From positions 46,179-110,178 of IMG/VR virus record IMGVR_UViG_3300035492_000044: 64,000 bases of DNA; one strand, 5' to 3'. Below the pieces are notes generated by a model, which did not search any database, had not been told where the DNA came from, and saw only the letters and a list, made by a program, of their open reading frames with translations. The position numbers and the translations under genes are program-made. Below are positions 37,457 to 63,738 of this stretch, one piece after another; the stretch's first letter is position 1; each line of letters opens with the position of its first letter. Origin of the DNA: a virus (taxonomy: Duplodnaviria; Heunggongvirae; Uroviricota; Caudoviricetes).

Positions 37457-37711
37457 TATTCGAGACCCCACTAGTCAGCCGAAGTACTGGTGGAGATTAG
37501 TGTCATGAGCTAGTCTGCCCAGGTCTCGAATCAAAACAGGAGAGTCCTTAGATGGTGCTATCTAGCCAGTTGCATTCGTAGTCTACCCGTCGGCTACATT
37601 GAATGCCTAAGTGACTCTCCGCCTATTATGGGGTATGCCTCGTCTAAAGCATTGGGATCTGTGATGATACCAGGGTGGGTAACTACGTAGTCCCACATAC
37701 TCCACCAGTTT

Positions 37712-37787
37712 GCCGGTATAGCTCAGCTGGTAGAGCAGCTGACTTGTAATCAGCAGGTCGTGAGTTCGAATCCCACTGCCGGCACCA
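37712..37787 (+). tRNA. tRNA-Thr (anticodon TGT)
   Basis: Acceptor GCCGGTA/TGCCGGC, stem GCTGA/TCAGC with loop CTTGTAA, CCA. Confidence 0.8.
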
Positions 37788-37799
37788 TATTGTGGTTAC

Positions 37800-37916
37800 T
37801 GGTTCCTATCATTATGTGGTTGGAAGCAAAAAGTCTAGTAATCACAACCTAATTGCTGTAATCCCTCTTGAAGTGAAACATGATGGACGGGAGTTCGACT
37901 CTCCCCAGCTCCACCA
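37800..37916 (+). ncRNA. ssrA: tmRNA acceptor piece (3' half of a permuted ssrA): T-arm + 3' acceptor strand + CCA
   Basis: 'GGACGGGAGTTCGACTCTCCCCAGCTCCACCA' ends 37916 and closely matches the E. coli tmRNA 3' end '..GGGTTCAACTCCC.CCAGCTCCACCA'. No matching 5' acceptor strand upstream. Left boundary is approximate. Confidence 0.65.
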
Positions 37917-37986
37917 TAGTTACCCTGGTAGTGACAGCCTTTGAGTGCGGTCTTAATCTACCATGGCTATCAGAGTAACTATGATG

Positions 37987-38240
37987 GGGCTGATCTGGAT
38001 TCGACATTGTGCGTAGTGAATAGAGGCAGCACAGGTAGATGACTGCCTGAAGTTGAGCCACCTTGCGGAAGGTCTGGGCTCAGCTGAAATAGCATAAATC
38101 AAGTAACTGCCAACGATGAATCGTTCGCACCTCTGGCTCTGGTTGCTTAAGTAACCTGATGCTGGTCGGGTATCTTCGGATCGCTCTCCTGCTATAGCTA
38201 ATACCTATAGTTGCCTCGGAACAGAAAGAGAGCACCTATT
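37987..38240 (+). ncRNA. ssrA: tmRNA coding piece (5' acceptor strand GGGGCTGATCTGGATTCGAC..., tag ORF ANDESFAPLALVA-stop)
   Basis: 'GGGGCTGATCTGGATTCGAC' at 37987 matches the tmRNA 5' end 'GGGGCUGAUUCUGGAUUCGAC'. Tag frame 'GCC AAC GAT GAA TCG TTC GCA CCT CTG GCT CTG GTT GCT TAA' at 38109-38150. Lies downstream of the CCA end, so the gene is circularly permuted. 3' boundary approximate. Confidence 0.7.
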
Positions 38241-38257
38241 TCATTAGTGAGGACTAA

Positions 38258-38467
38258 ATGGAACATCACATCCTTAATCTCACTGCCCAGAAGGGTCGCC
38301 TGTATTACTACCAGGGTAATTTCTACCATCCGCTTGATCTGGTAGGTAACTCGGTAGGTCTAGTGAAGAGAGGAATTCGAGAGTTCCTCGCTAAGAATAA
38401 AGATATGGTAGCTCGTGACAGAGCTAGCCCAGACTACAAGACTCTGGTTGAATTATCAGGTCTTTAA
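38258..38467 (+). CDS. hypothetical small protein
   Basis: ORF within the tRNA island. Confidence 0.3.
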   Translation: MEHHILNLTAQKGRLYYYQGNFYHPLDLVGNSVGLVKRGIREFLAKNKDMVARDRASPDYKTLVELSGL

Positions 38468-38570
38468 CTAATCCTGTCGTTGGGACTACCCAGTAGCCAT
38501 GAACTTCTGGGCGTCAGTAGAAGATACTGGACCAGTACGAAACCTGGTAATAATTAATTAGGAGAGCAGC

Positions 38571-38774
38571 ATGATGCTATCTGAGTTGGGTCAACGTATC
38601 TTGGCCCACTATGTTGAAAGACGTAGCGGTAAGTCGGGTAACTACATCCCTACTGACTGTGATCGTAAAGCAGCTCAACTAGCTGCTGAGAATACCACGG
38701 ATCATCTACGTGGAGCTACTGTTATGGCTCGGATGTATGATGACAAGCTTGCTGGTAAGGCTCCTATTAAGTAG
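38571..38774 (+). CDS. hypothetical small protein
   Basis: ORF with RBS 'ggagag'. Confidence 0.3.
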   Translation: MMLSELGQRILAHYVERRSGKSGNYIPTDCDRKAAQLAAENTTDHLRGATVMARMYDDKLAGKAPIK

Positions 38775-38917
38775 GAGCCGACTCGTACTTTCTGATGAGT
38801 AGCCCGAGTATAAAAGGCACGAAACTGTAATAGTCAAAGAGCCACTGATGGTGGCCAGTTAGTAACTCACACTGTAGCTAACTGAATTACGTTTGCAGAG
38901 GACCGTCAATCTGAAGC

Positions 38918-39625
38918 ATGAAGTGTACGCCTATGGTACTGACACTACCTTGGAAGTTGTACTGTGCTGGCGCTATACCAGCACTTAATACAGTGCAGCC
39001 TACAATCTATTCTTGCCTCGAACTGGATGAGTCCACAGAGGATGCGCACTTGAGTAGATTGTGGGAAGTACTGGAGATAATCATGACCAGAGAAGATTTA
39101 ATAAATCTATCCAAGATACCTCCTTCAAATATATCAGTAGCAAAGTCTCTTGAAGCTAGAGGTTATCCATATTATGGTAACCTAAAATCTTCATATCCGA
39201 TTCATTGGGCCAGCTTCTCTGCTATGCACGGAAGAGTTAGAGATTTTGGCCTTGATTGTGATTTTCCTAGAAATGTGGATGGATTTATTGATTTTATCCT
39301 TTATGTCGGACCTGTTCCTGGAGATATGATTAGGCCAACTCTTGGTAGATCAGATCATTCAATTGGGTACTTAAAGGGTAATTTTAAGTGGCAGGAGTCC
39401 AGTGATAATACATCGGAGTCTGCTACAAGAAACAAGACTGTAGTCAAGATTCAAGAGTGTCGTTTAAATAGGTTGGAAGACCTAGTAAGTAGTCTAGGGG
39501 ATAAAGTTGAAATAGACTCCTTATTTACGACCTCTCACTTTAGATATAAGAAGGATTTGTACAGGCTACTTAGAAGTAGGGGATATAAAATATCTTCTGA
39601 CTATAAAGTAGCTAGTAAAGTTTAA
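38918..39625 (+). CDS. HNH homing endonuclease (paralog 1)
   Basis: 'LGRSDHSIGYLKGNFKWQ' resembles the HNH 'RIDNxxGYxxxNxRW' motif; AT-rich codon usage differs from the neighbours; embedded between tRNAs. Confidence 0.5.
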   Translation: MKCTPMVLTLPWKLYCAGAIPALNTVQPTIYSCLELDESTEDAHLSRLWEVLEIIMTREDLINLSKIPPSNISVAKSLEARGYPYYGNLKSSYPIHWASFSAMHGRVRDFGLDCDFPRNVDGFIDFILYVGPVPGDMIRPTLGRSDHSIGYLKGNFKWQESSDNTSESATRNKTVVKIQECRLNRLEDLVSSLGDKVEIDSLFTTSHFRYKKDLYRLLRSRGYKISSDYKVASKV

Positions 39626-39626
39626 T

Positions 39627-39716
39627 GGAGAGTTGGCCGAGTGGTTTAAGGCACCTGACTTGAAATCAGACGGATCAGCAATGGTCCCCAGGGTTCGAAT
39701 CCCTGGCTCTCCACCA
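39627..39716 (+). tRNA. tRNA-Ser (anticodon TGA), type II
   Basis: Acceptor GGAGAG../..CTCTCC, long variable arm, loop CTTGAAA, GGTTCGAATCC T-arm, CCA. Confidence 0.7.
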
Positions 39717-40045
39717 TATTGACCTAAGAAGATTACACTCATCATGGGTGGGATTAGCCTCTTATCTTCTTGGTCAATATTCTCTGTTACTCACAAGTAC
39801 CTTAACTAACAACTGCACAGACGTTAGCCAACCAGATGTGAGTAATCGAGGTTCCACTCTCATTCCGAGAGTGTTGATAAGGGGGTGATCCTTATCTCCG
39901 GCTGCAGCTACGGATACTGCAGAAAGGCTAGTTAATGTCGTGAGACATCGACAGGCCTACCGTTGTACCAGAGGCGAATAGGGTAGCTCCCGTTCCAGCA
40001 CTGCTTTGCTGGATAGCCTCTTCTTATACCTAAGCAGAGGTTAGT

Positions 40046-40585
40046 ATGAACATACCTGAAATAAAATATGATACCGAGTACCTAATAAAAATAGCTTTCC
40101 ATAATTTTGATTTATGGAGCCATCACGAGCAAATGGCCGTTAAGTCTATGGAAGCTAGAGGTATTCCATGTTATGGTTTATTACCTAAAATGTTTCCGAT
40201 TCATCGGAACCGTTTTAGAAATATGCATAATAGAATAGACGAACAGTGTTTAGAGACTTCGTTTAAAAGAGATTTAGAAGGTTTTGCTAAATTTGTGGAA
40301 TATCTTGGACCAGTTCCTACTGAAATGAAAGTCCCGTCTTTAGGAAGAATCGATCATTCTAAAGGTTATGTAATAGGCAACTTTACATGGCAGGAACTTA
40401 GAGATAATATAGAAGAAATGGCCAATAGAACCAAGTCTTCAGATAATAAGTTCTGGGTAAACAGCCCAGGATGCACAGGTTATAGATGGTATAACGACGG
40501 ACAGACTGAATTCTTTCTGAGAGAAAATAATCCTTTAATTGAAGACGCTGGTCTAGTTAGAGGTCGGTTTTCTAATCGACGTTAA
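40046..40585 (+). CDS. HNH homing endonuclease (paralog 2)
   Basis: 'SLGRIDHSKGYVIGNFTWQ' HNH motif; clear paralogy to 38918-39625 ('EARGIPCYG', 'LGPVPTEMKVPSLGR'). Confidence 0.55.
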   Translation: MNIPEIKYDTEYLIKIAFHNFDLWSHHEQMAVKSMEARGIPCYGLLPKMFPIHRNRFRNMHNRIDEQCLETSFKRDLEGFAKFVEYLGPVPTEMKVPSLGRIDHSKGYVIGNFTWQELRDNIEEMANRTKSSDNKFWVNSPGCTGYRWYNDGQTEFFLRENNPLIEDAGLVRGRFSNRR

Positions 40586-40638
40586 TCCATCAGAAGCCAC
40601 TAATGCTGTGGAAAACTCTGCAAAAATTTAGGTGACTT

Positions 40639-40932
40639 ATGAATAAGGTAGTTAGATTCCTTAATGCCATTCGTAGGTCACACCCAGATATGGTCGAGTT
40701 GTATACTCAGGGCCAATGCTACAACTTCCATCTTATCCTCCGAGAGGTCTTCCCAGATGCTGTTGCCTGGTATGACCCAGTTGAGGGCCATGTGTACTCC
40801 AAGATTGGAGACTGCTGGTACGATATAAGAGGAAGACATTTCAAACTGGATCCACGAGCTAGTATTCTGGATCATCGTATGTCCGACAAACCTCATCGCT
40901 GGGGTGGACGTGATAGAAGAAGACTAAGGTGA
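40639..40932 (+). CDS. hypothetical protein
   Basis: ORF. Confidence 0.4.
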   Translation: MNKVVRFLNAIRRSHPDMVELYTQGQCYNFHLILREVFPDAVAWYDPVEGHVYSKIGDCWYDIRGRHFKLDPRASILDHRMSDKPHRWGGRDRRRLR

Positions 40933-40935
40933 GTT

Positions 40936-41502
40936 ATGGCTCGTAAATCATTCAAGGACATGACCCAGTTTCAAGTAGGCCAGCACTTCTGTGAATGTGA
41001 TCTAGGCCAGGTACTCGAGTTCGCTATCACTACCGAACCTGTAGTTAAGGACGTGGATGGTCGACGCCAGATTACCTGGACAGGTCGTGACGTGAAGACT
41101 CAGCGGGATATTGAGTATCTCGTTACTGAGGGCTTCGAACATTATGGCCCTAAGATCTACGACCCAGCTGACATGTTCAGCCCAGAGGATGTAGCTCTTG
41201 CTCTCCGACAGTTGCGCCAGTCTCCTAATGTCCTTCAGAAGGTCGAGGTAGATCCTGGTGCACCTGGTGGTGATGAGACGGTAGTTAGCTGTATAGTTCC
41301 TATTAATGGAAAAGATCATCACCTAGTCCTACCGGTTACATTGCATTATCGTGGTATCTGCAGACTGGCTGGATATAATGACGACAGACTGTACACCATT
41401 ACCTACGTCTCTCAGCAAGGTAGTGGTATAGTCGGGCCTAATGACTCTCTCCAGATTACAGCTGGTACAAAGATAAATGTGGCATTGACCAACAATGCAT
41501 AA
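40936..41502 (+). CDS. hypothetical protein
   Basis: ORF. Confidence 0.4.
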   Translation: MARKSFKDMTQFQVGQHFCECDLGQVLEFAITTEPVVKDVDGRRQITWTGRDVKTQRDIEYLVTEGFEHYGPKIYDPADMFSPEDVALALRQLRQSPNVLQKVEVDPGAPGGDETVVSCIVPINGKDHHLVLPVTLHYRGICRLAGYNDDRLYTITYVSQQGSGIVGPNDSLQITAGTKINVALTNNA

Positions 41503-41546
41503 CGACTTCCAGATAGTCCGAAACCCTGTTAGGGTGGAAGTCGGAA

Positions 41547-41888
41547 ATGGAGAGAGTTATGCTTGGTAAACCCATGAAGTCGATTAAGGTTCAATATGAG
41601 CCTGGCTGGAATGGTGGAACTTGGTCTGTAGTCAGTCGGAAGATTGATGCAGTATCTAAAGTCCACGATCTTCCTATGGATGTCAAGGTCAAGATACGGG
41701 GTATCCTAATCGACGCCTGTAAATCTACTCGAAAGGGTACTGACTATGACATGGGCCATCAGTACGACTGGGAATCCTGGGACCTGACTCTTAAGGTCAA
41801 GACTGAACTGGGTGTAATGGAGTTCAGTTTCTATGAGTATGCCCAGAAGCATCCTCGAGTCAAGACCTGGGAGATCTTCTACGAATAA
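41547..41888 (+). CDS. hypothetical protein
   Basis: ORF after class-B motif 41503. Confidence 0.4.
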   Translation: MERVMLGKPMKSIKVQYEPGWNGGTWSVVSRKIDAVSKVHDLPMDVKVKIRGILIDACKSTRKGTDYDMGHQYDWESWDLTLKVKTELGVMEFSFYEYAQKHPRVKTWEIFYE

Positions 41889-41966
41889 GGGCCTCTAGCA
41901 TAACTGGTAAATGCGTCCGGCTCATAACCGGAGGACAGATCGGTTCGAATCCGACGGGGCCCACCA
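41889..41966 (+). tRNA. tRNA-Met/Ile2 (anticodon CAT)
   Basis: Acceptor GGGCCTC/GGGGCCC, stem TCCGG/CCGGA with loop CTCATAA, GGTTCGAATCC T-arm, CCA. G1-C72 pair means it is not an initiator. Confidence 0.75.
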
Positions 41967-42688: not shown

Positions 42689-42880
42689 ATGAACGGTGAG
42701 ACTCTGGTACAGAAGTACCGTAAAGCTATCGCCAGTTATTATGCAGAGGTTGAGAAGGTAGACCGGTGCCGTCGTCTCAACCTCCGTCATAAGGACAAGC
42801 GTGACCTTATTAAGGTCAAGGTAGCTAAACTCAAGAAGCAACTGGATCAACAAGCTAAGGGTGTGGTAATCAAACCATGA
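42689..42880 (+). CDS. small basic protein
   Basis: ORF translationally coupled to the dUTPase gene. Confidence 0.35.
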   Translation: MNGETLVQKYRKAIASYYAEVEKVDRCRRLNLRHKDKRDLIKVKVAKLKKQLDQQAKGVVIKP

Positions 42881-43581
42881 ATGAAGCACAACTACGTACA
42901 ATGCTAGGTCTGCAATATGACCTGAACAAGGCCATCTTCCCAGACTTCCTGGAACGTAAGCTACCGTACTATCGAGCTACCTGGATCGAAGCAGGTGAGC
43001 TGATGGACCACGTAGGTTACAAGTGGTGGAAGAAGCGTAATGATGACCTGAGTCAGGCTCGCCTGGAACTGGTTGACATGTGGCACTTCATCCTCAGTGA
43101 ACTGATGGTCGGTGCTTATGTACTGATCAAGACCACTGATCGTGACCGCATCATCGAGACTGCTATCGATATGGTGCTCGATGACGTTACCTCTGAGATG
43201 GGTGTCATTGAGGGTGTCGATGTACTCGACCTGATCGAGCAGTTCACCTGTAATCTCCTCCAGACTCGTCTTGGTCAGGGAGCTAACTTCTGCAGTGACA
43301 TCAGTATGTTCCGTCAACTGTGCCTGACTCTGGGCCTGACTGATGAGCAGCTGTTCCTGCAGTATATCGGCAAGAATACCCTGAATCACTTCCGTCAGCA
43401 ACATGGGTACAAAGAAGGTACCTATCGGAAGAATACCTGGGGTATGTCGTCCAATCAGGAAGACAATGAATTCCTGACCGACGTCCTGAATGCATATCAG
43501 GAACAGCTGCTGAGCTCCAATCCGGAAGAGGTCTCGGAGAAGGTATATGACCTGCTCCGGATCAACTATCCGAAGATGTAA
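42877..43581 (+). CDS. All-alpha (dimeric-type) dUTPase/dCTPase, T4 gp56-like NTP pyrophosphatase
   Basis: 'YYRATWIEAGELMDHVGYKWWKK' and 'ARLELVDMWHFILS' are hallmark motifs of dimeric dUTPase/dCTPase. Confidence 0.7.
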   Translation: MNEAQLRTMLGLQYDLNKAIFPDFLERKLPYYRATWIEAGELMDHVGYKWWKKRNDDLSQARLELVDMWHFILSELMVGAYVLIKTTDRDRIIETAIDMVLDDVTSEMGVIEGVDVLDLIEQFTCNLLQTRLGQGANFCSDISMFRQLCLTLGLTDEQLFLQYIGKNTLNHFRQQHGYKEGTYRKNTWGMSSNQEDNEFLTDVLNAYQEQLLSSNPEEVSEKVYDLLRINYPKM

Positions 43582-44449: not shown

Positions 44450-45514
44450 ATGCACGTAGTAAAGGCACGTGGCATTAATGATGCCGTCAAGCAACTGATC
44501 CATGATGTTCACCATTTCGGTACTGAGACTAAGTCCGATAAGGGGACAGTGAAGGAAATCAATCGTCTACTACTGGAGATCGAGCGGCCTGTCAATCGAT
44601 ATCTGTGCATCCCTGGACGTAAGAACAACATCTACGCCATGATCGCCGAGACCATGTGGGTACTGTCAGGCACCAATCTGATTGAACCATTGCTGTCGGC
44701 AGTTCTCCCAAGAGCTAAGGACTTTAGTGATGATGGAGTTTCCTGGAGAGCTGGCTACGGTCCTCGACTCTATAAGGATGGGCAGCTCGATACTGCTATT
44801 AATCGTCTTAGGAAGTCACCTGCTACTCGCCAGTCTGTTATCTCGATTTACGATCCTGCTCTTGATACCGATAGTGCAATTCACGCGCAGCTTGGTGTAT
44901 CTGCTAGTAAGGATGTACCTTGCAACAATATGCTGTATCTCTATACTGACCCTGATAATCGCAATAGACTCAATCTGAGTGTGATTCAGCGCAGTGGTGA
45001 TGCACTATGGGGCTTTGGTAGCATCAATATCTTCGAGTGGTCGTTCCTCCAGGAAGTGGTGGCATCTGTTCTGGGTATGGATGTGGGTACTTACGCCCAC
45101 TACTGCAACAATACCCATATCTACTACGACAAGCCGGTAGTGCTCCGCCAAGTCCAGGATATCGTCGCCAATACTGATGCCGTATCGCCGAATATGGCTA
45201 CTGGAATGCAGATGGACATTGGTGTCATTCACAGTGCTCACGATATCCGCATGTTCTTCAATCTGGTATGCCAGGTTATGGGACGAGTGGCTATCAAAGA
45301 GCTCGACCGTGAAGCAGGCATGTCTGCTATTCGTAATGTCTTCGAGACTTACCGAGTAGCTCGCACTACTAACAAGCTGTGGCACTACTGCGAACTGGTA
45401 GTAGCTCAGTTGACTCCGGAAGAAGAGGAACAGATCGATCTCTCTGGGTATTCTCAGGACTTGATCAATGCTGTATGCTGCAGCACGTTCACTAAGTTCA
45501 AGTACATTATTTAA
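44450..45514 (+). CDS. Thymidylate synthase family enzyme (ThyA or dUMP hydroxymethylase) with ~80 aa C-terminal extension
   Basis: Catalytic Cys 'DVPCNNMLYLY' (vs 'APCHAFFQFYV'), 'IQRSGDALWGFGSINIFEWSF' (vs '[20 protein letters not shown]'). Asn at the pyrimidine-discriminating position suggests a uracil substrate. Confidence 0.85.
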   Translation: MHVVKARGINDAVKQLIHDVHHFGTETKSDKGTVKEINRLLLEIERPVNRYLCIPGRKNNIYAMIAETMWVLSGTNLIEPLLSAVLPRAKDFSDDGVSWRAGYGPRLYKDGQLDTAINRLRKSPATRQSVISIYDPALDTDSAIHAQLGVSASKDVPCNNMLYLYTDPDNRNRLNLSVIQRSGDALWGFGSINIFEWSFLQEVVASVLGMDVGTYAHYCNNTHIYYDKPVVLRQVQDIVANTDAVSPNMATGMQMDIGVIHSAHDIRMFFNLVCQVMGRVAIKELDREAGMSAIRNVFETYRVARTTNKLWHYCELVVAQLTPEEEEQIDLSGYSQDLINAVCCSTFTKFKYII

Positions 45515-45526: not shown

Positions 45527-46192
45527 ATGAGCATTGCTCAGTTAGTTACTTTCATGAAGGAAGTTGATGGTCTCCGATTCACTGGTCGCTGGAATGGCCA
45601 CTTTATGTTCGATCGGAGTAATGTTGCTGAGCACAGCTTCCGGGTAGCATGGTGGGCTAGTCTCATCACCGACACGTACACCACTACCGATCGTGGTGAT
45701 AATACTCCTCTCTGCACAGTGAACGAGCATGAGCTCTACTCCTGTGTCCAGCGTACCATCCTGTCTCACGACATGGCTGAGAAGTACACTGGTGATGTTC
45801 GTCATGACATCAAGCGTGAGTACCCCACTCTGAAGGCAGTGCTGGATGATGTGGAAGAGGATCTCCTCAATCGTGTCATGCCATTCCGGAATAAGGTCAC
45901 TTATAGTGACGAAGTCCGTAAGATCACCAAGGCTATCTACAAGGGAGCTGACATTCTCGACTTCACTCTGGAGGCATTGAAAGAGATGAAGCGTGGTAAT
46001 GAGATCGTCGACTTCCCAGTAGCAGTAGTCCGTGGTCTGGTTCATATCCAGAGCCTTCCAGTCGAGGATGTTTCCTACATCTGCGAGGCTATGTTCTCCT
46101 ACATGCTGAACTCGTACGGTTATGAGTACAATAAACTCCGTGACCAGTACGCCAGTCAAGCTCAGTTCCACACTGATGGCGTTAGTGCCTAA
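45527..46192 (+). CDS. HD-domain phosphohydrolase (YfbR-like 5'-deoxynucleotidase)
   Basis: 'VAEHSFRVA' (H) and 'ILSHDMAE' (HD) motifs. Confidence 0.65.
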   Translation: MSIAQLVTFMKEVDGLRFTGRWNGHFMFDRSNVAEHSFRVAWWASLITDTYTTTDRGDNTPLCTVNEHELYSCVQRTILSHDMAEKYTGDVRHDIKREYPTLKAVLDDVEEDLLNRVMPFRNKVTYSDEVRKITKAIYKGADILDFTLEALKEMKRGNEIVDFPVAVVRGLVHIQSLPVEDVSYICEAMFSYMLNSYGYEYNKLRDQYASQAQFHTDGVSA

Positions 46193-49842: not shown

Positions 49843-50385
49843 ATGTCTATGTTGAGCTACCGTCGTATTATGGAACTGGTTGAGGCTGGTTCTATCCTGG
49901 TCGATAAGAAGTATGTTCAGAGTGCTAGTGTGGATGTTCACTTGAGTGAGAACCTCAAGCTGGAGAGTCCATTCGCTGCACTACTGGACCCCATGAATCC
50001 ATCGAATACTCCCCATCTGCGTGATATCAAGATCCACAAGAGTGGGTACATGCTACGTCCTCGCCAGATCTTCCTAGGTGTTACTGTGGAGCGATTCAAT
50101 CTCCCCAATAACATCGTAGGTGAGTTCACCATGAAGTCATCGATCGCTCGTTGCTTCCTGAATCACCTGCACAGTGATCACATGGATCCAGGCTTCAATG
50201 GTCACTTGACTCTGGAGATGGTGAACATGAATGAACAGCATTCTATTCGCCTGAGTGCAGGTATGCCTATTGGCCAGATCAAGTTCTACGAAGTAGAGCC
50301 GGTACCTGACCACATCCTGTACTCCAATGTGGGCCAGTACAACAATCAGTCTGAGATGCCTGTAGCTAGTAAGGGCGCTCGATAG
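49843..50385 (+). CDS. dcd: dCTP deaminase (Dcd/dUTPase trimeric superfamily)
   Basis: 'SSIARCFLNHLHSDHMDPGFNGHLTLEMVN' and 'AGMPIGQIKF' match Dcd signature regions. Confidence 0.75.
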   Translation: MSMLSYRRIMELVEAGSILVDKKYVQSASVDVHLSENLKLESPFAALLDPMNPSNTPHLRDIKIHKSGYMLRPRQIFLGVTVERFNLPNNIVGEFTMKSSIARCFLNHLHSDHMDPGFNGHLTLEMVNMNEQHSIRLSAGMPIGQIKFYEVEPVPDHILYSNVGQYNNQSEMPVASKGAR

Positions 50386-52465: not shown

Positions 52466-52503
52466 CGACGTTTTACTGTCTCGAAACCCTGTTAGGTTGG
52501 AGC
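52466..52503 (+). promoter_or_regulatory. Class-B motif copy upstream of the DNA polymerase gene
   Basis: 'CGACGTTTTACTGTCTCGAAACCCTGTTAGGTTGGAGCAG'. Confidence 0.6.
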
Positions 52504-55816: not shown

Positions 55817-56974
55817 ATGGACTCCAACCCTATGAATGGCGGTATCCATACGATTGAGGAGGCTCTGGGGGATATTACTCGATATCTTGACGAACAGACC
55901 ATTGCCCACCTCATTGCGGATCAGAAACAGGCTGATCAACGAGGCGTAATGTCTCAGTATCAGCGTTTCTCCCGTATGGCTGAACAAGAGCCTGATGCTC
56001 GCAAGAAGATCTACTACGAGTTCCGGGCACTTCTCCCAGAAGACCTAGCTCGTAAGCTAGCTATGGAGTATTACCAGAAGGAGATCCGTAATGGGGTTTA
56101 CTCTCTGGACTCGATGATGGATAGCCCTGATGGTGAAGGTGAGATGGAATCATCCGCACTGAACATCAAGGGATCCTACGGTAATCCGAATATCACCAAG
56201 GGCATGTTCGAGACTATGCTCAATAAGGGCATGGACACTCCTGAACGTCGTCTTGAGGTATCGGACCTGTTCGAGAAACTCATCGATAATCTGGGCAGAG
56301 CTGCACGAATCATCCTGATTACTCGCCTCGTAACTGGGGCAAGTACTGGTAAAATACGTCAGAAGGAAGGTAGTCCGATGTTTGGACTCGACCTTACCCA
56401 GATCGTTCGTAAGATCCCTGCCGAGTACAATCTGGTGATGAATCAGATTAAGGCTCTCGAGAAGGAGACTCTGGTTAAGCCTGAGCACATCACTTCTACT
56501 CTTATCTTCAACGGCACCACTAAGATGGTTGGTAACGATGAACGTAAGGTCGAGCGGATTATCGGTAAGCGAGAAATCACTTCTGGTAATGAGGAGCTTC
56601 AGAAGGCTCTGATGAAGCTATCTGGTGCATCGGATCTGAAAGAGCTAGTTGCATTCCTGGATGTTCGTGAGTCTAAGGACGACGTTCCGGCTGGAGCTAT
56701 GCTGAAGGCTATCGAAGCTATCCTGTCGGGGGGTAAGGTAGAACTCAGTACTCTTATTCGTGTAATCGTGATGGCTGTTAGTGCGAATATCAAAGGAGCT
56801 ACCGACCTAAGTCTGAGTAAGGCATGGTCTGGTCGTCCTCTGAAAGAGATCGCCAGGAGCTACCTCAATATGGCCAAGATAGCTCGTACTGAGCTTGACT
56901 GGATGCCTCTTCAAGATCTAATTATGGCTCCGGTTTTTGATAAAGAGAATCCGTTAGCTAAATTAGTTAAGTAA
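55817..56974 (+). CDS. hypothetical protein
   Basis: ORF. Confidence 0.4.
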   Translation: MDSNPMNGGIHTIEEALGDITRYLDEQTIAHLIADQKQADQRGVMSQYQRFSRMAEQEPDARKKIYYEFRALLPEDLARKLAMEYYQKEIRNGVYSLDSMMDSPDGEGEMESSALNIKGSYGNPNITKGMFETMLNKGMDTPERRLEVSDLFEKLIDNLGRAARIILITRLVTGASTGKIRQKEGSPMFGLDLTQIVRKIPAEYNLVMNQIKALEKETLVKPEHITSTLIFNGTTKMVGNDERKVERIIGKREITSGNEELQKALMKLSGASDLKELVAFLDVRESKDDVPAGAMLKAIEAILSGGKVELSTLIRVIVMAVSANIKGATDLSLSKAWSGRPLKEIARSYLNMAKIARTELDWMPLQDLIMAPVFDKENPLAKLVK

Positions 56975-57024
56975 AATGGAGAGGGGTGAGTTAATACCCA
57001 CCCCTCTCTTACGAGAACTTAGAT

Positions 57025-57486
57025 ATGGAAGATATTGGTCTACTTAGGCGAAAATATAAGCAGAAAATAATCAATGCCCAAAAGGATGGTTTTAATGTCT
57101 ACCTGACATTCGAAGAGTATTTAGCCAAGGCAGAAGAAGCTGGGATTAAACATCCTGATGAGATATCTCCTAGTGGGTTTCATTTATCTCGAGTTAATGA
57201 CGAGGGAGATTACAGAAATGATAACTGCCGATTCTTACCGTGTAAGGAGAATCATAGAGAGAAGAAACACTTACGTGGGGTTAATCACCCATGTTATGGG
57301 AAGCCTGGTAATTTACTAGGTAAGAAGGTAGTGAGGAGTTGTAATAGAAAGCTCTCTGACGATATGGTAGTTGCTATCTTTAATGACACCAGAAAAGTAG
57401 GTGAAATATGCAAAGAGTATAATGTAGTTGTCTCTACTGTCAATAAGATAAAGAGACGAGAAATTTATAGCTATCTTACAAGTTAG
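57025..57486 (+). CDS. putative HNH homing endonuclease
   Basis: 'GFHLSRVNDEGDYRNDNCRF' HNH-like; AT-rich codons differ from neighbours; free-standing between large conserved genes. Confidence 0.45.
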   Translation: MEDIGLLRRKYKQKIINAQKDGFNVYLTFEEYLAKAEEAGIKHPDEISPSGFHLSRVNDEGDYRNDNCRFLPCKENHREKKHLRGVNHPCYGKPGNLLGKKVVRSCNRKLSDDMVVAIFNDTRKVGEICKEYNVVVSTVNKIKRREIYSYLTS

Positions 57487-57645
57487 TTCTCTGGGTATCA
57501 GTGTTGAGTACTCAGAGATTCGGAGGATAAATTATTTTTCTGAAATACGAAAAATACTTTATCTATTCGTGGTTTTTCAGGGCGCTTACAGACTGTTAAA
57601 GCCAGTTAGTTTGGCCTTGGAGGCCTAACCTCTTGCAATAAGGCA

Positions 57646-58233
57646 ATGCTAATGTCAGACCAACGGAAATTATCAACACTAAAACTGGATACCTCGGGGG
57701 AATTCCTTGACCTTAGCTTCTACGATACGGTGCTTAAAGAGAAGTCCGTTGACCGGATGGACTACTACTTAAGTCGGGTTACTAATAACCCAGCCTACTC
57801 TGAATCTCTTCGTCTCGAAGCATACAACCACTTCCATCCGCGATTTGGTAAGTTCTGCTCTCTTGGTGAAGTGTCCGACTCGGTGGCTACTACGCCCACC
57901 TCTCAAGTTACGGTACTTGAGTCCACTTCTGTTAAGCAAGCAAGTCCTTCTTCTGACGCTAAGACCGACTTGACCTTAACTCGGTTAGTACGTATTATCA
58001 GCACTAAGCCGAATTCTGACAACCTACTCAAAGTCCTTGCATGGCATCTGGTGATGTGCAACATTACATTCTCCAATCCCATGCTGGATGAGCTTATCGC
58101 ACAATTCCGTCGTATATCCAATCTCACCTTCAACCACTTAATAGAGTGTATTGGATCGCGGTACGGTGCAGAACGAGCTAGAGAGAGTTTCAAATCGGTT
58201 TACAATAAGCACGTTCTGGGACAAATGGAGTAA
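57646..58233 (+). CDS. hypothetical protein
   Basis: ORF after class-A motif 57580. Confidence 0.4.
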   Translation: MLMSDQRKLSTLKLDTSGEFLDLSFYDTVLKEKSVDRMDYYLSRVTNNPAYSESLRLEAYNHFHPRFGKFCSLGEVSDSVATTPTSQVTVLESTSVKQASPSSDAKTDLTLTRLVRIISTKPNSDNLLKVLAWHLVMCNITFSNPMLDELIAQFRRISNLTFNHLIECIGSRYGAERARESFKSVYNKHVLGQME

Positions 58234-58239: not shown

Positions 58240-59694
58240 ATGCGTCCTGTACTTAAGATCAAACTTATGTCAGACAGCAATATTAAGTCTGTCAGTTCTG
58301 GGGAAATTGAGTCCTACCGTCTGTACAACTTCAAGTACAAGACACCTCGCCCAGTACCGGGTGGTCTATTCTGCGAGAAGATCTTTGGTCCTATCCAGGA
58401 TTACACCTGTGCCTGCGGTATCCGTCACTCTATTGCCTTGAAAGTATGCGAGACCTGCGGTGTGCCTATTCTTAGTGCACGTGAACGCCGTAATCGTATG
58501 GGGCATATCAATTGTCGCCTCCCCTACCTAAATCCAATTGCCTCTGACCTAGTCGGCGGTATCTTCGGAGTTAGTGGTAAGGCTCTCCTCGATGTGGCAG
58601 TAGGTACCTCGCGGTACTACATAGAGGAGGCAGCTGGTTCAGGTCCATTGATCAGTTCGAGCGGTGTGCGTTATCGCATTCAAATCGTAGGTAAGGAAGA
58701 TCCTGAGTGGGAGAACTCCGATTACTCGATTTACTCGCTTCTCTCTGACCTGATTGACCTGGACATTAGTGGTGAGGAGACACTCTCCAAGCACAAAAAT
58801 CCTGATGTTCGTCGGTATTATGAAAACGGGTTCACTTCGGTCCTGAATTTCTTCAATACCTCAGTTCTTGTTCCGCCACCTCTCCACCGAGATATCTCCA
58901 TCTCGAATGGTGAGATTTCGTATCACCCCACTAATATCCTCTACCTTCGACTCATTCGAGTAGCTCATCGATTCCAGGTTATTATGGAATCGGAGAACGA
59001 GGATATGTTGGTTCTACTCCGTGAAGAAGCTCGAGTTCTCCAGCATCTGGTGAATTCAGTTTACACTGAAGGAGCTAAGGACCATCGCGGTAACGCTATC
59101 CCAGCCATTATGGACAAACTGGGAGGTAAAGAGGGTCTGTTTCGTGGTAATATGCTAGGCAAGCGTATTGACTACTCCGGACGTTCCTCGATTACTACAG
59201 GTCCCGATCTCCCGATTGATACCTGCGCTGTACCGTTCAAAATGATGTACACTCTGCTTGAACCCCATATCCTCGGAAGGCTAGTTACTCTGGCAGAAGA
59301 GCGATTCAATGGGGAGGCTAATCCGTACACTGTGGCTTCTCGTTGGTATAAGAGGCAGACCACTGAGGCGGTTGAAGCCTGCTATGACCTTGCCAAGGAG
59401 GCTATTGTAATCCTTAACCGAGCTCCATCGCTCCATCGCTATTCGGTAATGGGATTTAAGGTAGTTCTTCACTCTGGTAAGAGTATCCGGATACCTCCGC
59501 TAATCTGCTCCCCATTCAACGCAGACCATGATGGCGACACCATGGCGATTCACCTGCCGTTGTCTAAGCAGGCACTAGCTGAGTTCCCTCTGTATTCGGT
59601 TCAGCATAATCTGATGAGTTCTATCGATTATGACACCCCGAATATGTCTCCGTCCCACGAGGCTGTAGTGGGTCTGTACCAGCTCACCCTGTGA
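58240..59694 (+). CDS. Multisubunit RNA polymerase beta' subunit, N-terminal half
   Basis: Zn-binding 'DYTCACGIRHS..CETCGV', 'ARERRNRMGHINCRLPYLNPI' (vs 'RRERMGHIELASPTAHIW'), catalytic 'NADHDGDTMAIHLPLS' (vs 'NADFDGDQMAVHVPLT'). Confidence 0.9.
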   Translation: MRPVLKIKLMSDSNIKSVSSGEIESYRLYNFKYKTPRPVPGGLFCEKIFGPIQDYTCACGIRHSIALKVCETCGVPILSARERRNRMGHINCRLPYLNPIASDLVGGIFGVSGKALLDVAVGTSRYYIEEAAGSGPLISSSGVRYRIQIVGKEDPEWENSDYSIYSLLSDLIDLDISGEETLSKHKNPDVRRYYENGFTSVLNFFNTSVLVPPPLHRDISISNGEISYHPTNILYLRLIRVAHRFQVIMESENEDMLVLLREEARVLQHLVNSVYTEGAKDHRGNAIPAIMDKLGGKEGLFRGNMLGKRIDYSGRSSITTGPDLPIDTCAVPFKMMYTLLEPHILGRLVTLAEERFNGEANPYTVASRWYKRQTTEAVEACYDLAKEAIVILNRAPSLHRYSVMGFKVVLHSGKSIRIPPLICSPFNADHDGDTMAIHLPLSKQALAEFPLYSVQHNLMSSIDYDTPNMSPSHEAVVGLYQLTL

Positions 59695-59775
59695 TTTAGA
59701 AGGATTTAGAATGTAATCTGACTAACAATAAGTTAGAATTACTTAGTCTTGTTAATTAATCTGAGGTAATCCATA

Positions 59776-61299
59776 ATGCTGGTAAATAACGTTCATTATT
59801 TCAACAATCCTCAAGCAATTCACGAAGCGTATGAGAACGGGTTGATTACTTACCATACCGAGGTTAAGTATAAGTTCCGGGACACTACTGAGTGGGTTGA
59901 CATTACTTATGGGCGATTCCTGATCTGGGAATTCACTGGGTACCTCCCAGAGGGTGCCCTTAGTAAGAAGGGTGTGAAGAATCTCGTTATCCACATTAAC
60001 CGGGAGTACAGCCCTGAAGTAGCTGTTAAGAAGATGAAACAGCTACAAGATCTGGCTTTCAAGATCGCCACTGAGAAGGGAATTACCCTTGGGATGGACG
60101 ACTTCCACCCAATGCCTGGTACTAACGAGATCATGGCAGAAGAGCAGGTCCGTATCTCGGCTCTTCCTATCGAAGAGCGAGCTGAAGAGTGGGATACCGT
60201 TATTAACGGCCAGGTAGATCGCTGGATTAACGAGGTCGATCGAAATAACCCTCTCTACGCCATGTACCAGTCAGGTGCTCGAGTAACTCCCTCCCAGATA
60301 CGCCAGATGGTTGTTGGTAAGGGTCTTCTCACTAAGATGAACGGTGAGATTAACCCGGATGCAGTTACTCAGTCTCTGGCAACAGGACTTAGTGTGTACA
60401 ATTACTTCATGACATGTGGGCCTGCTCGGAGAGGTCTGGCTAACAACTTCTTCGTAGTTCCTGCCTCTGGATACTTCGCACGGCAGCTGGTTAATGCTGC
60501 GCGTGACCTTACCATCGTAGAAGAGGACTGCGGTACTCGAGAGGGGGTAGAGGTCAAGTCGAAATACGCAGTAGGTCGCTACCTTGCAGGTACATCCGAA
60601 CTCTGGACTAAGGACAGCAAGACTGACATGCCTTACCTCAAGGTGAGGAGTCCTCTTACCTGCTCCTCTGTTCTAGGTGGACTCTGCGCTAAGTGCTGTG
60701 GACAGGATCCTGCCACTAACGAGGATTGGAGAGTAGGTTTCGGTATGGGGACAGCGTCGGCTCAGCATATCTCGGAACCAGCTACTCAGGCCGGTCTACG
60801 TGGTAAGCATACCTCAGGTTCGGTTACTCTGGCGGATTACCGTAACTCGGTTGATAACGTACTTCCGAACATCATCAGGGCTTTCGGTGGTATCGGTACT
60901 CAGTTCGTAACTACTGAGGGAGCTACTTCGAAGACCCTATACGACTTCAGCAAGACTGAGAAGGATCCTATTACTGCAGCTGAGAAGCTCTGCCAGCACA
61001 TTAAGGACCTGTTCGTGGAGGGTGGTCTGGGTGTAGCTAGCATCCACATCGAGGTAATTATTCGCTCCTGTATTGAGCAGGTAATTAAGAAAGATGGTGA
61101 AGTAGGTCTTCGGTCTCATGGAGATGAGGGCCGAATCAAGTGCCTCAACGTGAGTCAGGTTCCTCTTAATTACCCGAGCTGGCTGAAGTCTATCAGCTTC
61201 GGCTACACCTCCAGCCGACTCCGTAAGGCAGTATGCCGGATGGAGAAGACTTACGGCGTAATGACGGAGCAGATTATGACAACTGCGTTCCAACACTAA
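59776..61299 (+). CDS. Multisubunit RNA polymerase beta' subunit, C-terminal half
   Basis: 'VPASGYFARQLVNAARDLTIVEEDCGT' (vs '[26 protein letters not shown]') and trigger-loop 'SEPATQAGLRGKHTSG' (vs 'GEPGTQLTMRTFHIGG'). Confidence 0.85.
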   Translation: MLVNNVHYFNNPQAIHEAYENGLITYHTEVKYKFRDTTEWVDITYGRFLIWEFTGYLPEGALSKKGVKNLVIHINREYSPEVAVKKMKQLQDLAFKIATEKGITLGMDDFHPMPGTNEIMAEEQVRISALPIEERAEEWDTVINGQVDRWINEVDRNNPLYAMYQSGARVTPSQIRQMVVGKGLLTKMNGEINPDAVTQSLATGLSVYNYFMTCGPARRGLANNFFVVPASGYFARQLVNAARDLTIVEEDCGTREGVEVKSKYAVGRYLAGTSELWTKDSKTDMPYLKVRSPLTCSSVLGGLCAKCCGQDPATNEDWRVGFGMGTASAQHISEPATQAGLRGKHTSGSVTLADYRNSVDNVLPNIIRAFGGIGTQFVTTEGATSKTLYDFSKTEKDPITAAEKLCQHIKDLFVEGGLGVASIHIEVIIRSCIEQVIKKDGEVGLRSHGDEGRIKCLNVSQVPLNYPSWLKSISFGYTSSRLRKAVCRMEKTYGVMTEQIMTTAFQH

Positions 61300-61312: not shown

Positions 61313-61978
61313 ATGTCCGGTCGAGTTTACAACATAGCTAAACTCACCAGTTCTCCCTCGAAGATATTCTTCGAGGGAGATATTTTAATATCTGGTGATA
61401 GTCTAACGGTTAGGAGTAAGAATCTGGAGTCAGATGTATTTGCTAACTCACGTAGAGGCCGGAATGTTAATCTCCGAGTCACTGAGGAAGCATGCGTAAG
61501 ACTACTCCAGACATTTGATAATCCTCAATATCCATATAACGATTTCATCTGCTATTCCATACTCACAGTTAAGAAGATAAGGCTATCGAGTTACAGAGAG
61601 GTTGCTCATGACCTTAAGTATCTAGATCTTCTTCTGATGAAGCCAGGTATAACGAACATCGTTACTAGAATCTGCCATCAATTTGACGTTATACTTACAG
61701 ACTACCCCACTCTGATTGGTAAGACACAGTCGAAGATAATTGATCTTAATAAGGTATCCCTAGATGGAATTCCTCTTCCTAAGGTCAGATCCCGAGATAT
61801 TCTAGTAGAGAAGAATATTATGCAGGAGATAAACAACCAGACTAATGCTGGGATAAATCACAGGCATAAAGTTCTAGTACTGCTATATGACAATCAGTTA
61901 GTGGCCCATGATATATCTATGTTCGATAGACATAAGATTCTACCTTGTACACTCCTGAAATATCCAGGGTGTATTTAG
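61313..61978 (+). CDS. hypothetical protein
   Basis: ORF directly downstream of the beta' genes. Confidence 0.4.
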   Translation: MSGRVYNIAKLTSSPSKIFFEGDILISGDSLTVRSKNLESDVFANSRRGRNVNLRVTEEACVRLLQTFDNPQYPYNDFICYSILTVKKIRLSSYREVAHDLKYLDLLLMKPGITNIVTRICHQFDVILTDYPTLIGKTQSKIIDLNKVSLDGIPLPKVRSRDILVEKNIMQEINNQTNAGINHRHKVLVLLYDNQLVAHDISMFDRHKILPCTLLKYPGCI

Positions 61979-62053
61979 GGGCGCTTACAGAGCTCTAAAG
62001 CCAGTTAAGGTGAGGGGGAAGTTCCCCAGACTTCTGTTTAGGTGGAGAAAATT

Positions 62054-62335: not shown

Positions 62336-62392
62336 GGGCGCTTAGAACGTCCAAAAGCCAGTTAAAGTGGAAGGGCGGACTTACCGCTTTCC
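62336..62392 (+). promoter_or_regulatory. Class-A motif copy + hairpin
   Basis: 'GGGCGCTTAGAACGTCCAAAAGCCAGTTAAAGTGGAAGGGCGGACTTACCGCTTTCC' upstream of 62419. Confidence 0.6.
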
Positions 62393-62418: not shown

Positions 62419-62799
62419 ATGGTTGCTGCAACTACTACCCCGAAGAAGAAAAACACCACTAAGCCGATGGGTGCTAAGGCCCGGTCTTTCCTGAATCAGG
62501 TGGCTGAGACCGTAGAGTCCAAGTCCAAGACAGCGGCTACTGAGGAGCTCTTCACCGGCCAGAAGCAGGAGGAGGCTCCTGTAGCTCCGGTAGCTGCTCC
62601 GTCGGTTACTGAGGAAATGGCCAAGAAAGGTCTTCAGTGCTGGGCCTGGATCGAAGAGCACAGTAAGTACTACCGTGCTCGAATCACTGAAGTGGTGGAA
62701 CCTGGTAAGTACAACGTGATCTACCGTGACTTCAAGGCAACTGTCGGCCTGGATGACCTCCAGCTGGAGAAGCCGAGTAATCTCAAGGCTAAGGCCTGA
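62419..62799 (+). CDS. small basic protein (Lys-rich N-terminus)
   Basis: After class-A motif 62336; 'TTTPKKKNTTKPMGAKAR'. Confidence 0.45.
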   Translation: MVAATTTPKKKNTTKPMGAKARSFLNQVAETVESKSKTAATEELFTGQKQEEAPVAPVAAPSVTEEMAKKGLQCWAWIEEHSKYYRARITEVVEPGKYNVIYRDFKATVGLDDLQLEKPSNLKAKA

Positions 62800-62811: not shown

Positions 62812-62846
62812 GGGTGAGTGTACTTTGTGTACTCACCCTATTTTTG
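62812..62846 (+). terminator. rho-independent terminator (GGGTGAGTGTAC..GTACTCACCC + TATTTTTG)
   Basis: Hairpin + T-run. Confidence 0.7.
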
Positions 62847-62857
62847 TGCTAAATTAA

Positions 62858-63738
62858 TGAGGTTGAAAATGAAGTGCCGTAGAATTATTTCTCATCTCCT
62901 TGCTGAAGCTCGTCGTCTGGAGGATGAGGGAGATAAATGGCGTAGTATCGCCCATCGTAAGGGTGCTTCTGCCATTAGTCAAGTTCTTAAGTCGAACGAG
63001 GAAGTACCTAAGGATTTTGACTGGATGAGCATAAGTGGAATAGGTCCAAGTCTTAATTCCAAGATTCAAGCAGTATTGGCCGGAGAAGTGAGTACAAATA
63101 CATCTTGGATGGACTGGATGAGTAAGGAAGATAGAGCCGAAATTCTTAAATACTTTGACTGTCAGAGTGATCACGAATTTCTACTCGAGATTAGAAAATC
63201 TCCGTACTATACCCACGTGTCCGATGCCGTACTAAAGCACTACGGGCTATTTAGGATCCCAGAATTATTATACCCGTTGACTCAGGTACTAGAGACCTAC
63301 TTGGGAGACTTGGTAATCCAAGTTACTGGAGGTATACGTAGGAAGAACAATGTGGGGCACGATATTGATTACGTAGCTGCGTGCTCACATGAGGAGTTGA
63401 TGAAGAGGATTGACAAGATAAATAATTCCTCTAAAGTGCAATTGACTCCAATTAATCAGGGTGAGAGCTTCCCTCGATTTATAGCTGATTTCCGAGGACA
63501 TAAAATCAATGTGGACTTCCGTCTCTGTGAACCCAGATTCTTCGCATCCATGGTCCTTTATTTAACTGGGTCTAAGGAGCATAATATTCGGCTTCGTTCG
63601 ATAGCCAAGAAGAAGGGATTCCTTCTTAATGAGTATGGACTTACCAGAATAGGTGCAGAATCCCCTATGGAAATATGGTCTGAGATGGGAATATTTGAGG
63701 TACTTGGTGAGCCTTATATAAAACCAGAGTACCGCTGA
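62858..63738 (+). CDS. Family X DNA polymerase (Pol beta-like, minimal)
   Basis: HhH 'ISGIGPSLNSKI', 'GGIRRKNNVGHDIDYV' (vs Pol beta 'GSFRRGAESSGDMDVLL'), 'YLTGSKEHNIRLRSIAKKKGFLLNEYGL' (vs '[28 protein letters not shown]'). Confidence 0.8.

Follow-up and report, generated by a model that had tools for sequence, protein, structure and literature searches.

The stretch of DNA analysed here, referred to as the window, comprises 64,000 nucleotides of a virus of the Caudoviricetes (IMG/VR record IMGVR_UViG_3300035492_000044, positions 46,179 to 110,178). It carries the β′ subunit of a multisubunit RNA polymerase (RNAP) in two adjacent open reading frames (ORFs), termed the N half and the C half, which are predicted to encode jointly a compact β′ with every catalytic element; a gene for the β subunit was not found with them. 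The pair is almost certainly a real and functional split β′ of a phage resembling RP13 and IME392. The best explanation, which is held with a confidence just short of even, is a functional split β′ that works with the β subunit of the host or with an unrecognized partner. Split phage β′ genes are already known and homologues of the present pair have been deposited, but barely annotated; a lineage apparently without β and yet with a catalytically intact, bacterial-like β′ is not described in any paper found.

Identification of the β′ gene pair

The original prediction, made from the letters of the window, of a β′ split over two adjacent genes was borne out (coordinates of all features are given in Table 1). 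Pfam searches placed RNA_pol_Rpb1 domain 1 (E = 3.5e-18, 66.4 bits against a gathering cut-off of 39.7) and domain 2 (E = 2.2e-30, 106.5 bits, cut-off 25.3) in the N half, and domain 3 (E = 1e-6, 29.1 bits, cut-off 28.9), domain 4 (E = 6e-8, 33.0 bits, cut-off 24.8) and domain 5 (E = 7e-17, 62.2 bits, cut-off 28.5) in the C half. The five domains thus follow one another in order across the two ORFs, which assigns the pair to β′ of the RpoC/Rpb1 superfamily. With phmmer, the N half was aligned to residues 19–110 (Zn ribbon) and 243–514 of Escherichia coli RpoC and the C half to residues 535–664, 718–822 (F loop and bridge helix) and 876–992, the last of these segments holding the second Zn site and the trigger loop; a weaker match of the C half to residues 1234–1263 covers the segment with HIEVIIR and region H.

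The N half contains the Zn ribbon CACG...CETC at residue 57, switch 2 (GKRIDYSGR) at residue 307 and the active-site motif NADHDGD at residues 427–433, in which the F of the canonical NADFDGD is replaced by H. The bridge helix (ARRGLANNFFVVPASGYFARQLV) starts at residue 217 of the C half and the trigger loop (ISEPATQAGLRGKH), with its Arg and His retained, at residue 332; this half lacks the lineage-specific SI3 insertion and the greater part of the jaw. Of the motifs named beforehand, NADHDGD and the trigger loop were recovered as described, whereas the sequence given as RERMGHI actually reads RERRNRMGHI. The profile of the housekeeping RpoC (NCBIfam TIGR02386) gave 261 bits with the N half and 164 bits with the C half against a cut-off of 963.5, and the pair is accordingly classed, on profile scores, as a homologue and not as an orthologous cellular RpoC.

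Verification of the split

The two ORFs are separate, as had been proposed, but the gap between them measures 81 nt instead of the 80 nt originally given. Its GC content is 26%, compared with ∼46% for the window. Both ORFs lie in one frame, in which the spacer contains five stop codons (TGA, TAG, TGA, TAG and TAA); the other two frames contain stops as well, so that a single frameshift cannot join the ORFs. The ATG of the C half at 59776 is preceded, at a distance of 9 nt, by the Shine–Dalgarno sequence GAGG. Because the ORFs share their reading frame, a tblastn search with E. coli RpoC ran uninterrupted over the spacer. A second assembly, that of SRR11791770 in Logan (locus L007; loci retrieved from databases are designated by L and a number), is identical over 8,849 nt, spacer included.

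A sequencing frameshift between the ORFs had been named as the result that would overturn the split, and it is excluded by the stops in all frames, the ribosome site belonging to the C half and the identical second assembly; joining by a nonsense mutation or by read-through was ruled out on the same grounds. An intron or intein was also rejected: 81 nt are too short for either, the spacer has no Rfam family at the gathering threshold, and the end of the N half and the start of the C half fall at homologous β′ positions without extra sequence of intein size. That the pair is an artefact or a product of decay, whether through faulty assembly or sequencing or as a pseudogene broken recently, would agree with the common frame of the two ORFs and is otherwise contradicted by the stop-rich, AT-rich spacer, the separate ribosome site, the second assembly and the occurrence of the same break in at least ten other phages or contigs, where the halves lie kilobases apart; its probability is negligible.

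Break point and relatives

The N half ends at about residue 514–515 of E. coli β′ in the window, in IME392, in RP13 and in the loci L012 and L016, and a query spanning the junction located the same break in Ab1-TPeters, vB_AbaM_3098 and EP_H11. When the N halves of the window, IME392, RP13 and L016 were aligned directly with gp269 of the jumbo phage AR9, all ended 0–3 residues from VxGLYxxT. The likeness to jumbo phages that was claimed originally is therefore correct as regards the break point, since the non-virion β′N of AR9 (gp269) ends at the same residue, ∼515; a preliminary assignment of the break to a position different from the jumbo-phage site, derived from YerA41 and cyanobacterial profiles, was overturned by this alignment. 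The break in YerA41 lies ∼65–85 residues, and that in phage Arash ∼37 residues, further downstream than the break in the window.

The closest protein matches (38–45% identity) are from Ab1-TPeters and vB_AbaM_3098 (Acinetobacter), EP_H11 and IME392 (Escherichia), RP13 (Ralstonia) and phages of the RHph_TM30 type (Rhizobium); the genomes of Ab1-TPeters, EP_H11, IME392, RP13 and RHph_TM30 measure 110–207 kb. Several Logan contigs match at 38–50% identity. RP13 (ORF144/ORF150), IME392, EP_H11, Ab1-TPeters and vB_AbaM_3098 share the companion genes X200, X220 and X400 described below, as well as the neighbourhood of a long family-A and a family-X DNA polymerase. In the window the halves are adjacent and in N-to-C order, whereas in these five phages they are 1.6–40 kb apart or reversed: they are separated by 40 kb in Ab1-TPeters, occur in reversed order in IME392, EP_H11 and L015, and are parted by one to several ORFs in RP13, L014 and L016. 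Found adjacent, swapped or as far as 40 kb apart, the halves behave as independent genes. In GenBank the halves of these relatives are labelled β, β′ or hypothetical.

An unsplit β′ of 1017–1127 amino acids (aa) is encoded by Rhizobium phages (RHph_TM30 and RHph_Y65, Kleczkowskaviridae), by Vibrio phages Va2 and 1.031.O and by five IMG/VR contigs (L021–L023, L025 and L029), which belong to the same β′ lineage (275–314 bits) and have an X200-like gene upstream and a family-A DNA polymerase (PolA) gene nearby; no β was detected in the Rhizobium phages and the IMG/VR contigs. The five contigs (89–176 kb) each encode a 1017-aa β′ in the order PolA – 176 aa – β′ – 213 aa, as in the window, and two of them carry sample identifiers of the form 7000000xxx. 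Unsplit relatives occur in the human microbiome. Since the linker of RHph_TM30, RIKDHDKGFG, still resembles the RDCVNAKGEG of E. coli, the fused β′ is suggested to be ancestral and the split derived. The fission in the clade of the window was probably independent of that in AR9, because close relatives carry the unsplit gene. The same break as in AR9, despite these unsplit relatives, marks residue ∼515 as a recurrent and structurally permissive fission site.

Scores against the N half of the window were 313–510 bits within the clade sharing the split, 314 bits for RHph_TM30, 275–283 bits for the unsplit IMG/VR group, 215–249 bits for bacteria, 167–194 bits for mReC-like phage β′ with an adjacent β, and 102–112 bits for YerA41 and Carin-5. 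Bacterial β′ matches over the full length, at ∼215–260 bits, and the 60 best matches of the N half in the Protein Data Bank (PDB) are all bacterial β′ (E from ∼1e-64 to 1e-62). By these scores the β′ of the window is closer to bacterial β′ than to the β′ subunits of phages that own a β, which fits, without proving, continued constraint by a bacterial partner.

Two further rearrangements were seen among the retrieved loci. Gp206 of Salmonella phage Arash (L011, 9215–13792), 1525 aa long and annotated as β, matches both E. coli β and the N half of the window (E = 3e-24) and is interpreted as a fusion of β with β′N. In Vibrio phage 150E35-1 (L004, 14992–17502) and in L018 (4353–5669) the N part of β′ stops at ...SPFNAD, within the catalytic NAD|FDGD, and in L004 unrelated ORFs intervene before the β′ gene resumes; the pattern suggests either an inserted intron or homing endonuclease or a second site of fission in the active centre.

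Search for a β subunit

That no β gene lies inside the window, as stated in the original prediction, was confirmed with a tblastn search using E. coli RpoB, which found none. Pfam detected no Rpb2 domain in the 39 largest ORFs of the window, and the precomputed Pfam annotation of neighbouring genes contained none. Searches with phmmer and hmmsearch (--max), for which four β sequences and then a 69-sequence β profile were used as queries, gave nothing better than E = 0.3 in the window, in the 5.5 kb upstream of it (L020), in the whole of IME392 and in the flanks of eight relatives; L007 extends the sequence 0.6 kb downstream of the window. When E. coli β and YerA41 β were searched by tblastn against 50,697 phage records, β was recovered in phiKZ-like phages, AR9/PBS1, YerA41, Carin-5 and Arash, among others, and in no Rhizobium, Escherichia or Acinetobacter member of the clade.

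As a positive control, 72 IMG/VR loci with a β′ of 28–32% identity were fetched with the N-half alignment, and phmmer located a β directly downstream of β′ in them (E from 1e-71 to 1e-85). These loci (L028 and L030–L100) form a uniform group with an unsplit β′ of ∼900 aa followed by a β of ∼1000 aa and, judging from the gene order, are probably the mReC lineage of PMC7481178. The same program found no β within 10 kb in the five IMG/VR loci closest to the window (34% identity), by which the apparently β′-only lineage is extended. On these results β is probably truly absent from the phage, and the lineage appears to encode β′ only. No paper was found in the literature on a phage β′ without β, or on the polymerase genes of IME392, EP_H11, RP13 or the RHph phages; the paper on ΦM9 mentions no such gene.

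Companion genes

The small genes noticed earlier on either side of the pair, at 57646 and 61313, proved to be real and to be conserved partners of the two halves; they are termed X200 and X220, and a third companion, X400, lies further upstream. X400 orthologues adjoin the β′ genes of IME392, L012, L014, L015 and RHph_TM30. The X200 family has ten members beside β′, including those of IME392, RP13, RHph_TM30, Vibrio phage 150E35-1, L012, L014, L015 and L018, and the 176-aa ORF in the X200 position of L021 matches the X200 profile over its whole length (hhalign, E = 2e-4). Homology between the N-terminal part of X200 and a portion of X400 was detected with hhalign (probability 82%, E = 1e-5), and the N-terminal part of X400 is regarded as paralogous to X200. 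An exhaustive search of 1.84 billion representative proteins gave three homologues of X220. Word-indexed protein searches returned almost nothing for the companions, and for X400 only the query itself.

None of the three has a significant match in Pfam, PHROGs, NCBIfam or the PDB sequences; for X200 and X400 there was no PDB sequence match at E < 0.1, in a database that according to the literature holds phiKZ and AR9 polymerase entries. AlphaFold2 (AF2) models predict X200 as all-helical in two blocks (pLDDT 48) and X220 as an α/β protein with a β-rich N-terminal part (pLDDT 45), and fold searches with both gave noise. Among 15 members of the X200 and X400 families Pfam detected no sigma70 domain, the PDB profile search none either, and NCBIfam one sigma match at E = 0.1. 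X200 is regarded as a candidate specificity or assembly factor. The gene annotated as `RNA pol sigma factor' in the same position in Carin-5 was considered as its equivalent and rejected, as hhalign found no link and the Carin-5 annotation is without Pfam support.

These companions are the basis of a second explanation, in which the enzyme is self-sufficient: the split β′ would assemble with a diverged or non-homologous phage partner among X400, X200 and X220 to give five polypeptides, as many as in the non-virion RNAP of phiKZ and AR9. The five genes co-occur and remain linked through rearrangements, the three corresponding proteins of IME392 sum to 932 aa compared with the 924 aa of YerA41 β, the X220 model has the β-rich part mentioned above, and X400 of IME392 hits Pfam Rpb2_3 and a small β profile at noise level (E = 0.097 and 0.31, respectively). 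Against the large β profile, however, X400 scored E = 4.4, and profile–profile comparison (hhalign) of X400, X200 and X220 with the 69-sequence β alignment gave probabilities of at most 0.1%. X200 and the homologous part of X400 are predicted to be all-helical, the alignments show no conserved Lys-rich barrel motif, and tblastn with E. coli β detects even the very divergent β of phiKZ and AR9, whereas β′ is far better conserved here than in those phages. A self-sufficient enzyme is thus considered unlikely, though it is the most serious of the competing explanations.

An HNH gene upstream of the pair had also been predicted; the ORF is present and is a candidate for an HNH-like gene, with weak PHROG matches (E = 1.6e-5 at best) and no Pfam match. 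It is 44% identical to RP13 ORF147, which is located between the RP13 β′ halves, and AR9 gp269 (L101, 1126–3303) is annotated as a join around the HNH gene gp270, carried in an intron, ∼14 codons past the DGD motif. Mobile endonucleases recur near this part of phage β′ genes (the ORF at 57025–57486 of the window, RP13 ORF147 and AR9 gp270).

Two hairpins were noted in this region. At 61352–61380, within the first 70 nt of the X220 ORF, a perfect stem of 13 bp closed by a 3-nt loop precedes TATTTTAATA; it could be an internal attenuator or terminator or a coding coincidence. Immediately past the stop codon of X400, at 56979–57008, a GC-rich hairpin of 13 bp resembles a terminator when read on the − strand and lacks a T run on the + strand; it may end the DNA polymerase–X400 transcript.

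Promoter-like motifs

Two classes of bipartite motif were identified in the window, all copies of which are intergenic and on the + strand. Class A, aCGACGTTt-N∼11-TCGAAACCCTGTTAGGgTGG, occurs 15 times (0 copies expected by chance), and class B, GGGCGCTTAcAGA-N∼5-AAAGCCAGTTAaGGTGG, in about ten near-identical copies; both are often followed by a GC-rich hairpin. Between the class B copy at 57580 and position 61299 there is no further copy and no terminator-like site. The whole genome of IME392 (L001, L008 and L009) contains ∼28 copies of CCGCTCTTTT-N∼8-TCGAAAGGCTGTTAAaGTG upstream of genes, and because this motif is cognate to those of the window the motif architecture is taken, from these sequences, to be conserved across the clade. 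Sites of the sigma-70 type are not enriched near the RNAP genes, and the motifs are unlike sigma-70 promoters. Two conserved elements ∼17 bp apart form the geometry read by sigma-family factors. Classes A and B probably represent two kinds of promoter belonging to a transcription system specific to the phage, and it is suggestive that their number equals that of the paralogous helical proteins, X200 and X400.

Proposed assembly with the host β subunit

A two-barrel polymerase cannot work with one barrel. As both barrels are required and no phage β was found, the enzyme would be either a chimera with host β or a complex with a hidden partner of new fold. Host β on the host α2 platform would be the most economical source of the second barrel, and the chance that host β is the partner is put somewhat below even. 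The class B motif at 57580 would drive transcription of the string X200–β′N–β′C–X220, translation of the C half would start from its own ribosome site, and the two β′ halves would reassemble as they do in the AR9 and phiKZ polymerases. The reassembled β′ would then replace host β′ on host β/α2(ω), and the hybrid core, directed by X200 and X400, would recognize the motifs of the phage on hypermodified DNA; speculatively, the downstream-DNA channel would be opened by the absence of SI3 and the jaw. Extended to the whole clade, and with equal reserve, the proposal is that phages of 110–207 kb, most of them with the thymidine-hypermodification toolkit described below, may encode β′ alone, either fused or split at ∼515, install it on host β/α2 and, together with X200, X400 and X220, read long bipartite promoters on hypermodified DNA.

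The DxDxD triad is present in every member of the clade that holds the region, in IME392 as NMDVDGD; conservation across the whole clade was also seen for switch 2 and the Zn ribbon, and the bridge helix and the trigger-loop Arg and His were recovered in some members. This conservation of catalytic residues spans α-, β- and γ-proteobacterial hosts and is difficult to reconcile with a third explanation, in which the β′ halves are a non-catalytic decoy that sequesters host β/α or σ and so shuts off host transcription. A lone β′ without β would suit such a decoy, and the clamp-helix region, which binds σ in bacteria, is alignable; the phage-specific promoter motifs imply a dedicated transcription activity instead, and a decoy is regarded as improbable.

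Several points weigh against a chimera with host β, the explanation that is preferred here. The phage β′ is only ∼24–37% identical to bacterial β′ and may be too divergent for the host core, and its binding to host β is something that we infer. We are aware of no earlier case in which a phage β′ sits on a host core, and the literature yielded none. A role of X200 and X400 as specificity factors has no sequence or fold support. Three conserved companions of unrecognized fold travel with the halves and could supply a non-homologous partner, a role that the X200 and X220 models are too poor to exclude at their pLDDT values of 48 and 45. About 39 kb of the 110-kb source contig lay outside the β search (the corresponding region of IME392 consists of structural genes), and YerA41 and Carin-5, more distant members of the same DNA-polymerase group, encode β next to β′.

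If the chimera with host β is real, the host polymerase would be taken over by replacement of a catalytic subunit, unlike strategies that use sigma factors, modify the host enzyme covalently or supply a complete viral enzyme. Either outcome, a chimera or a hidden partner, would bear on the minimality and modularity of multisubunit polymerases, on the transcription of hypermodified DNA and on whether rifampicin-type drugs would block such phages. Experiments can address the question of the partner directly, since phages of the clade are in culture for E. coli, Acinetobacter, Ralstonia and Rhizobium.

Comparison with known systems

The organization was originally assigned to the phiKZ/AR9/PBS1 type, and this assignment did not hold: lineage and composition differ, as the contig measures 110 kb, bacterial β′ is closer and no β was found. 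AR9, PBS1 and phiKZ have genomes of >200 kb, two polymerase sets, a split β and a fifth subunit (Sokolova et al., PMC7598289; PMC9209446; PMC8287921). They resemble the window in carrying β′ as two polypeptides, with an identical β′N end in AR9 and an HNH endonuclease by the genes of both AR9 and the window; they differ in size, in their two sets and in their split β, whereas the source contig of 110,178 bp shows one set and no detectable β. The second (virion) RNAP set that was anticipated was not found either, with one set in the window and a single copy of either half in each close relative. The similarity of AR9 and PBS1 is confined to residues 290–441 of the N half (31% of its length; 25% identity, 57 bits, E = 1e-6); jumbo phages of Erwinia and Staphylococcus match it at E = 1e-4 to 1e-5, and no Pseudomonas phiKZ record does so at E ≤ 1e-3.

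A jumbo-type system with a split β and a second, virion set elsewhere in the genome would be compatible with the AR9 break point, with weak PHROG matches to jumbo-phage RNAP subunits (E from 9e-25 to 9e-7) and with the ∼39 kb outside the search. It is very unlikely in view of the 110-kb contig, the syntenic and complete IME392 genome with one N half, one C half and no β, the short AR9/PBS1 match and missing phiKZ match, and the existence of unsplit close relatives.

YerA41 and Carin-5 are likewise hypermodified-DNA phages with a small gene upstream of β′, which is split in YerA41; they differ in having β directly downstream of a β′ that is far more divergent. The RNAP subunits of YerA41 are virion-associated (PMC7354516). 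Marine Caudovirales of the mReC type have deep-branching β′ and β (Weinheimer & Aylward, PMC7481178). In the 72 loci that probably belong to this type, β′ is similarly compact and without lineage-specific insertions, but is unsplit at ∼900 aa, always followed by a β of ∼1000 aa and only 28–32% identical to that of the window. Cyanobacteria and plastids also split β′ downstream of the active-site barrel, into RpoC1/γ and RpoC2/β″. Their break lies ∼100 profile positions further downstream, γ extending to 619–626 and the N half of the window to 515–521 (NCBIfam), and the β″ models start at about residue 55–62 of the C half, so that the boundary is not that between RpoC1 and RpoC2. The pair is a member of a deposited yet unstudied family of split phage β′ which shares the break point of AR9 and neither its lineage nor its composition.

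Genomic context

Table 1. Features of the window (positions in the 64,000-nucleotide stretch)
Feature	Position	Strand	Description
SbcD (metallophosphatase)–SbcC (SMC/Rad50) fusion	1965–4742	+	Single 925-aa protein
Class B sites	Span 4815–63771, e.g. 57598–57608, 61997–62007, 62354–62364	+	Before the X200–β′N–β′C–X220 string and the next three genes
Class A sites	Span 5214–52496, e.g. 52481–52496	+	Before topoisomerase, DNA polymerase, tRNA and other genes
Thymidine-hypermodification toolkit	17452–18456, 44450–45514, 49843–50385, 42877–43581, 45527–46192, 9173–12172, 14211–15071		5-hmdU pathway and sugar-nucleotide genes
X400	55817–56974	+	Conserved, 385 aa; after the DNA polymerase gene with no motif in between
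HNH-like homing-endonuclease candidate	57025–57486	+	Free-standing; PHROG HNH families, E = 1.6e-5 to 4e-3
Class B copy	57580–57614	+	GGGCGCTTACAGACTGTT-AAAGCCAGTTA-GTTTGG; upstream of X200–β′N–β′C–X220
X200	57646–58233	+	Conserved, 195 aa; predicted all-helical; in every case directly upstream of the β′ N half
β′ N half	58240–59694	+	484 aa; Zn ribbon, clamp helices, switch 2, active-site barrel with NADHDGD
Intergenic spacer	59695–59775	+	81 nt, AT-rich; carries GAGG (59763–59766) of the C half
β′ C half	59776–61299	+	507 aa; F loop, bridge helix, second Zn site, trigger loop, HIEVIIR, region H
X220	61313–61978	+	Conserved, 221 aa, α/β; in every case directly downstream of the β′ C half
126-aa protein	62419–62799	+	Weak Tudor-domain match, E = 1.6e-4
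Family-X DNA polymerase	62818–63738	+	

The source contig of 110,178 bp carries a protein identical to the N half, and the syntenic complete genomes measure 110–116 kb (IME392, 116 kb). A megablast search with 14 kb found no nucleotide-level relative among the 50,697 phage records, and an exact-peptide scan of IMG/VR found no close relative. All genes of the window are on the + strand and form a replication and nucleotide-metabolism module with the SbcD–SbcC fusion, topoisomerase II, ribonucleotide reductase, helicase, a 1058-aa family-A DNA polymerase and the family-X DNA polymerase (Pol X). Their order matches that of IME392 and RP13, including the long PolA and the neighbourhood of Pol X. 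PolA has a Pfam DNA_pol_A domain, and the solved structures most similar to it are 9qhs (1142 aa, E = 9e-51) and 9qli/9qlh (1306 aa, E = 2e-22); both the Pfam and the PDB alignments span the polymerase domain only. IME392 and RP13 have been placed in an `SP15-like/RP13-like' group with a long PolA and T-hypermodified DNA (PMC12686479; bioRxiv 10.1101/2025.03.26.645540).

The toolkit comprises the genes of the 5-hydroxymethyldeoxyuridine (5-hmdU) pathway, namely a 5-hmdU DNA kinase (HMUDK_hel, E = 6e-57), a thymidylate-synthase homologue (Thymidylat_synt, E = 8e-18), a dCTP deaminase (DCD, E = 1e-28), a dUTPase (dUTPase_2, E = 6e-25) and a YfbR-like 5′-deoxynucleotidase (E = 1e-17), together with a DegT aminotransferase, epimerases and a cytidylyltransferase/mannose-6-P-isomerase fusion. 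From this gene content, hypermodification of the phage DNA on T is probable.

Eight clustered tRNA genes and a tmRNA carried by the phage (tag ANDESFAPLALVA) are located at 36060–41966 and 37807–38159, respectively. The best-scoring model of the tmRNA clan is the betaproteobacterial one, which hints at a betaproteobacterial host.

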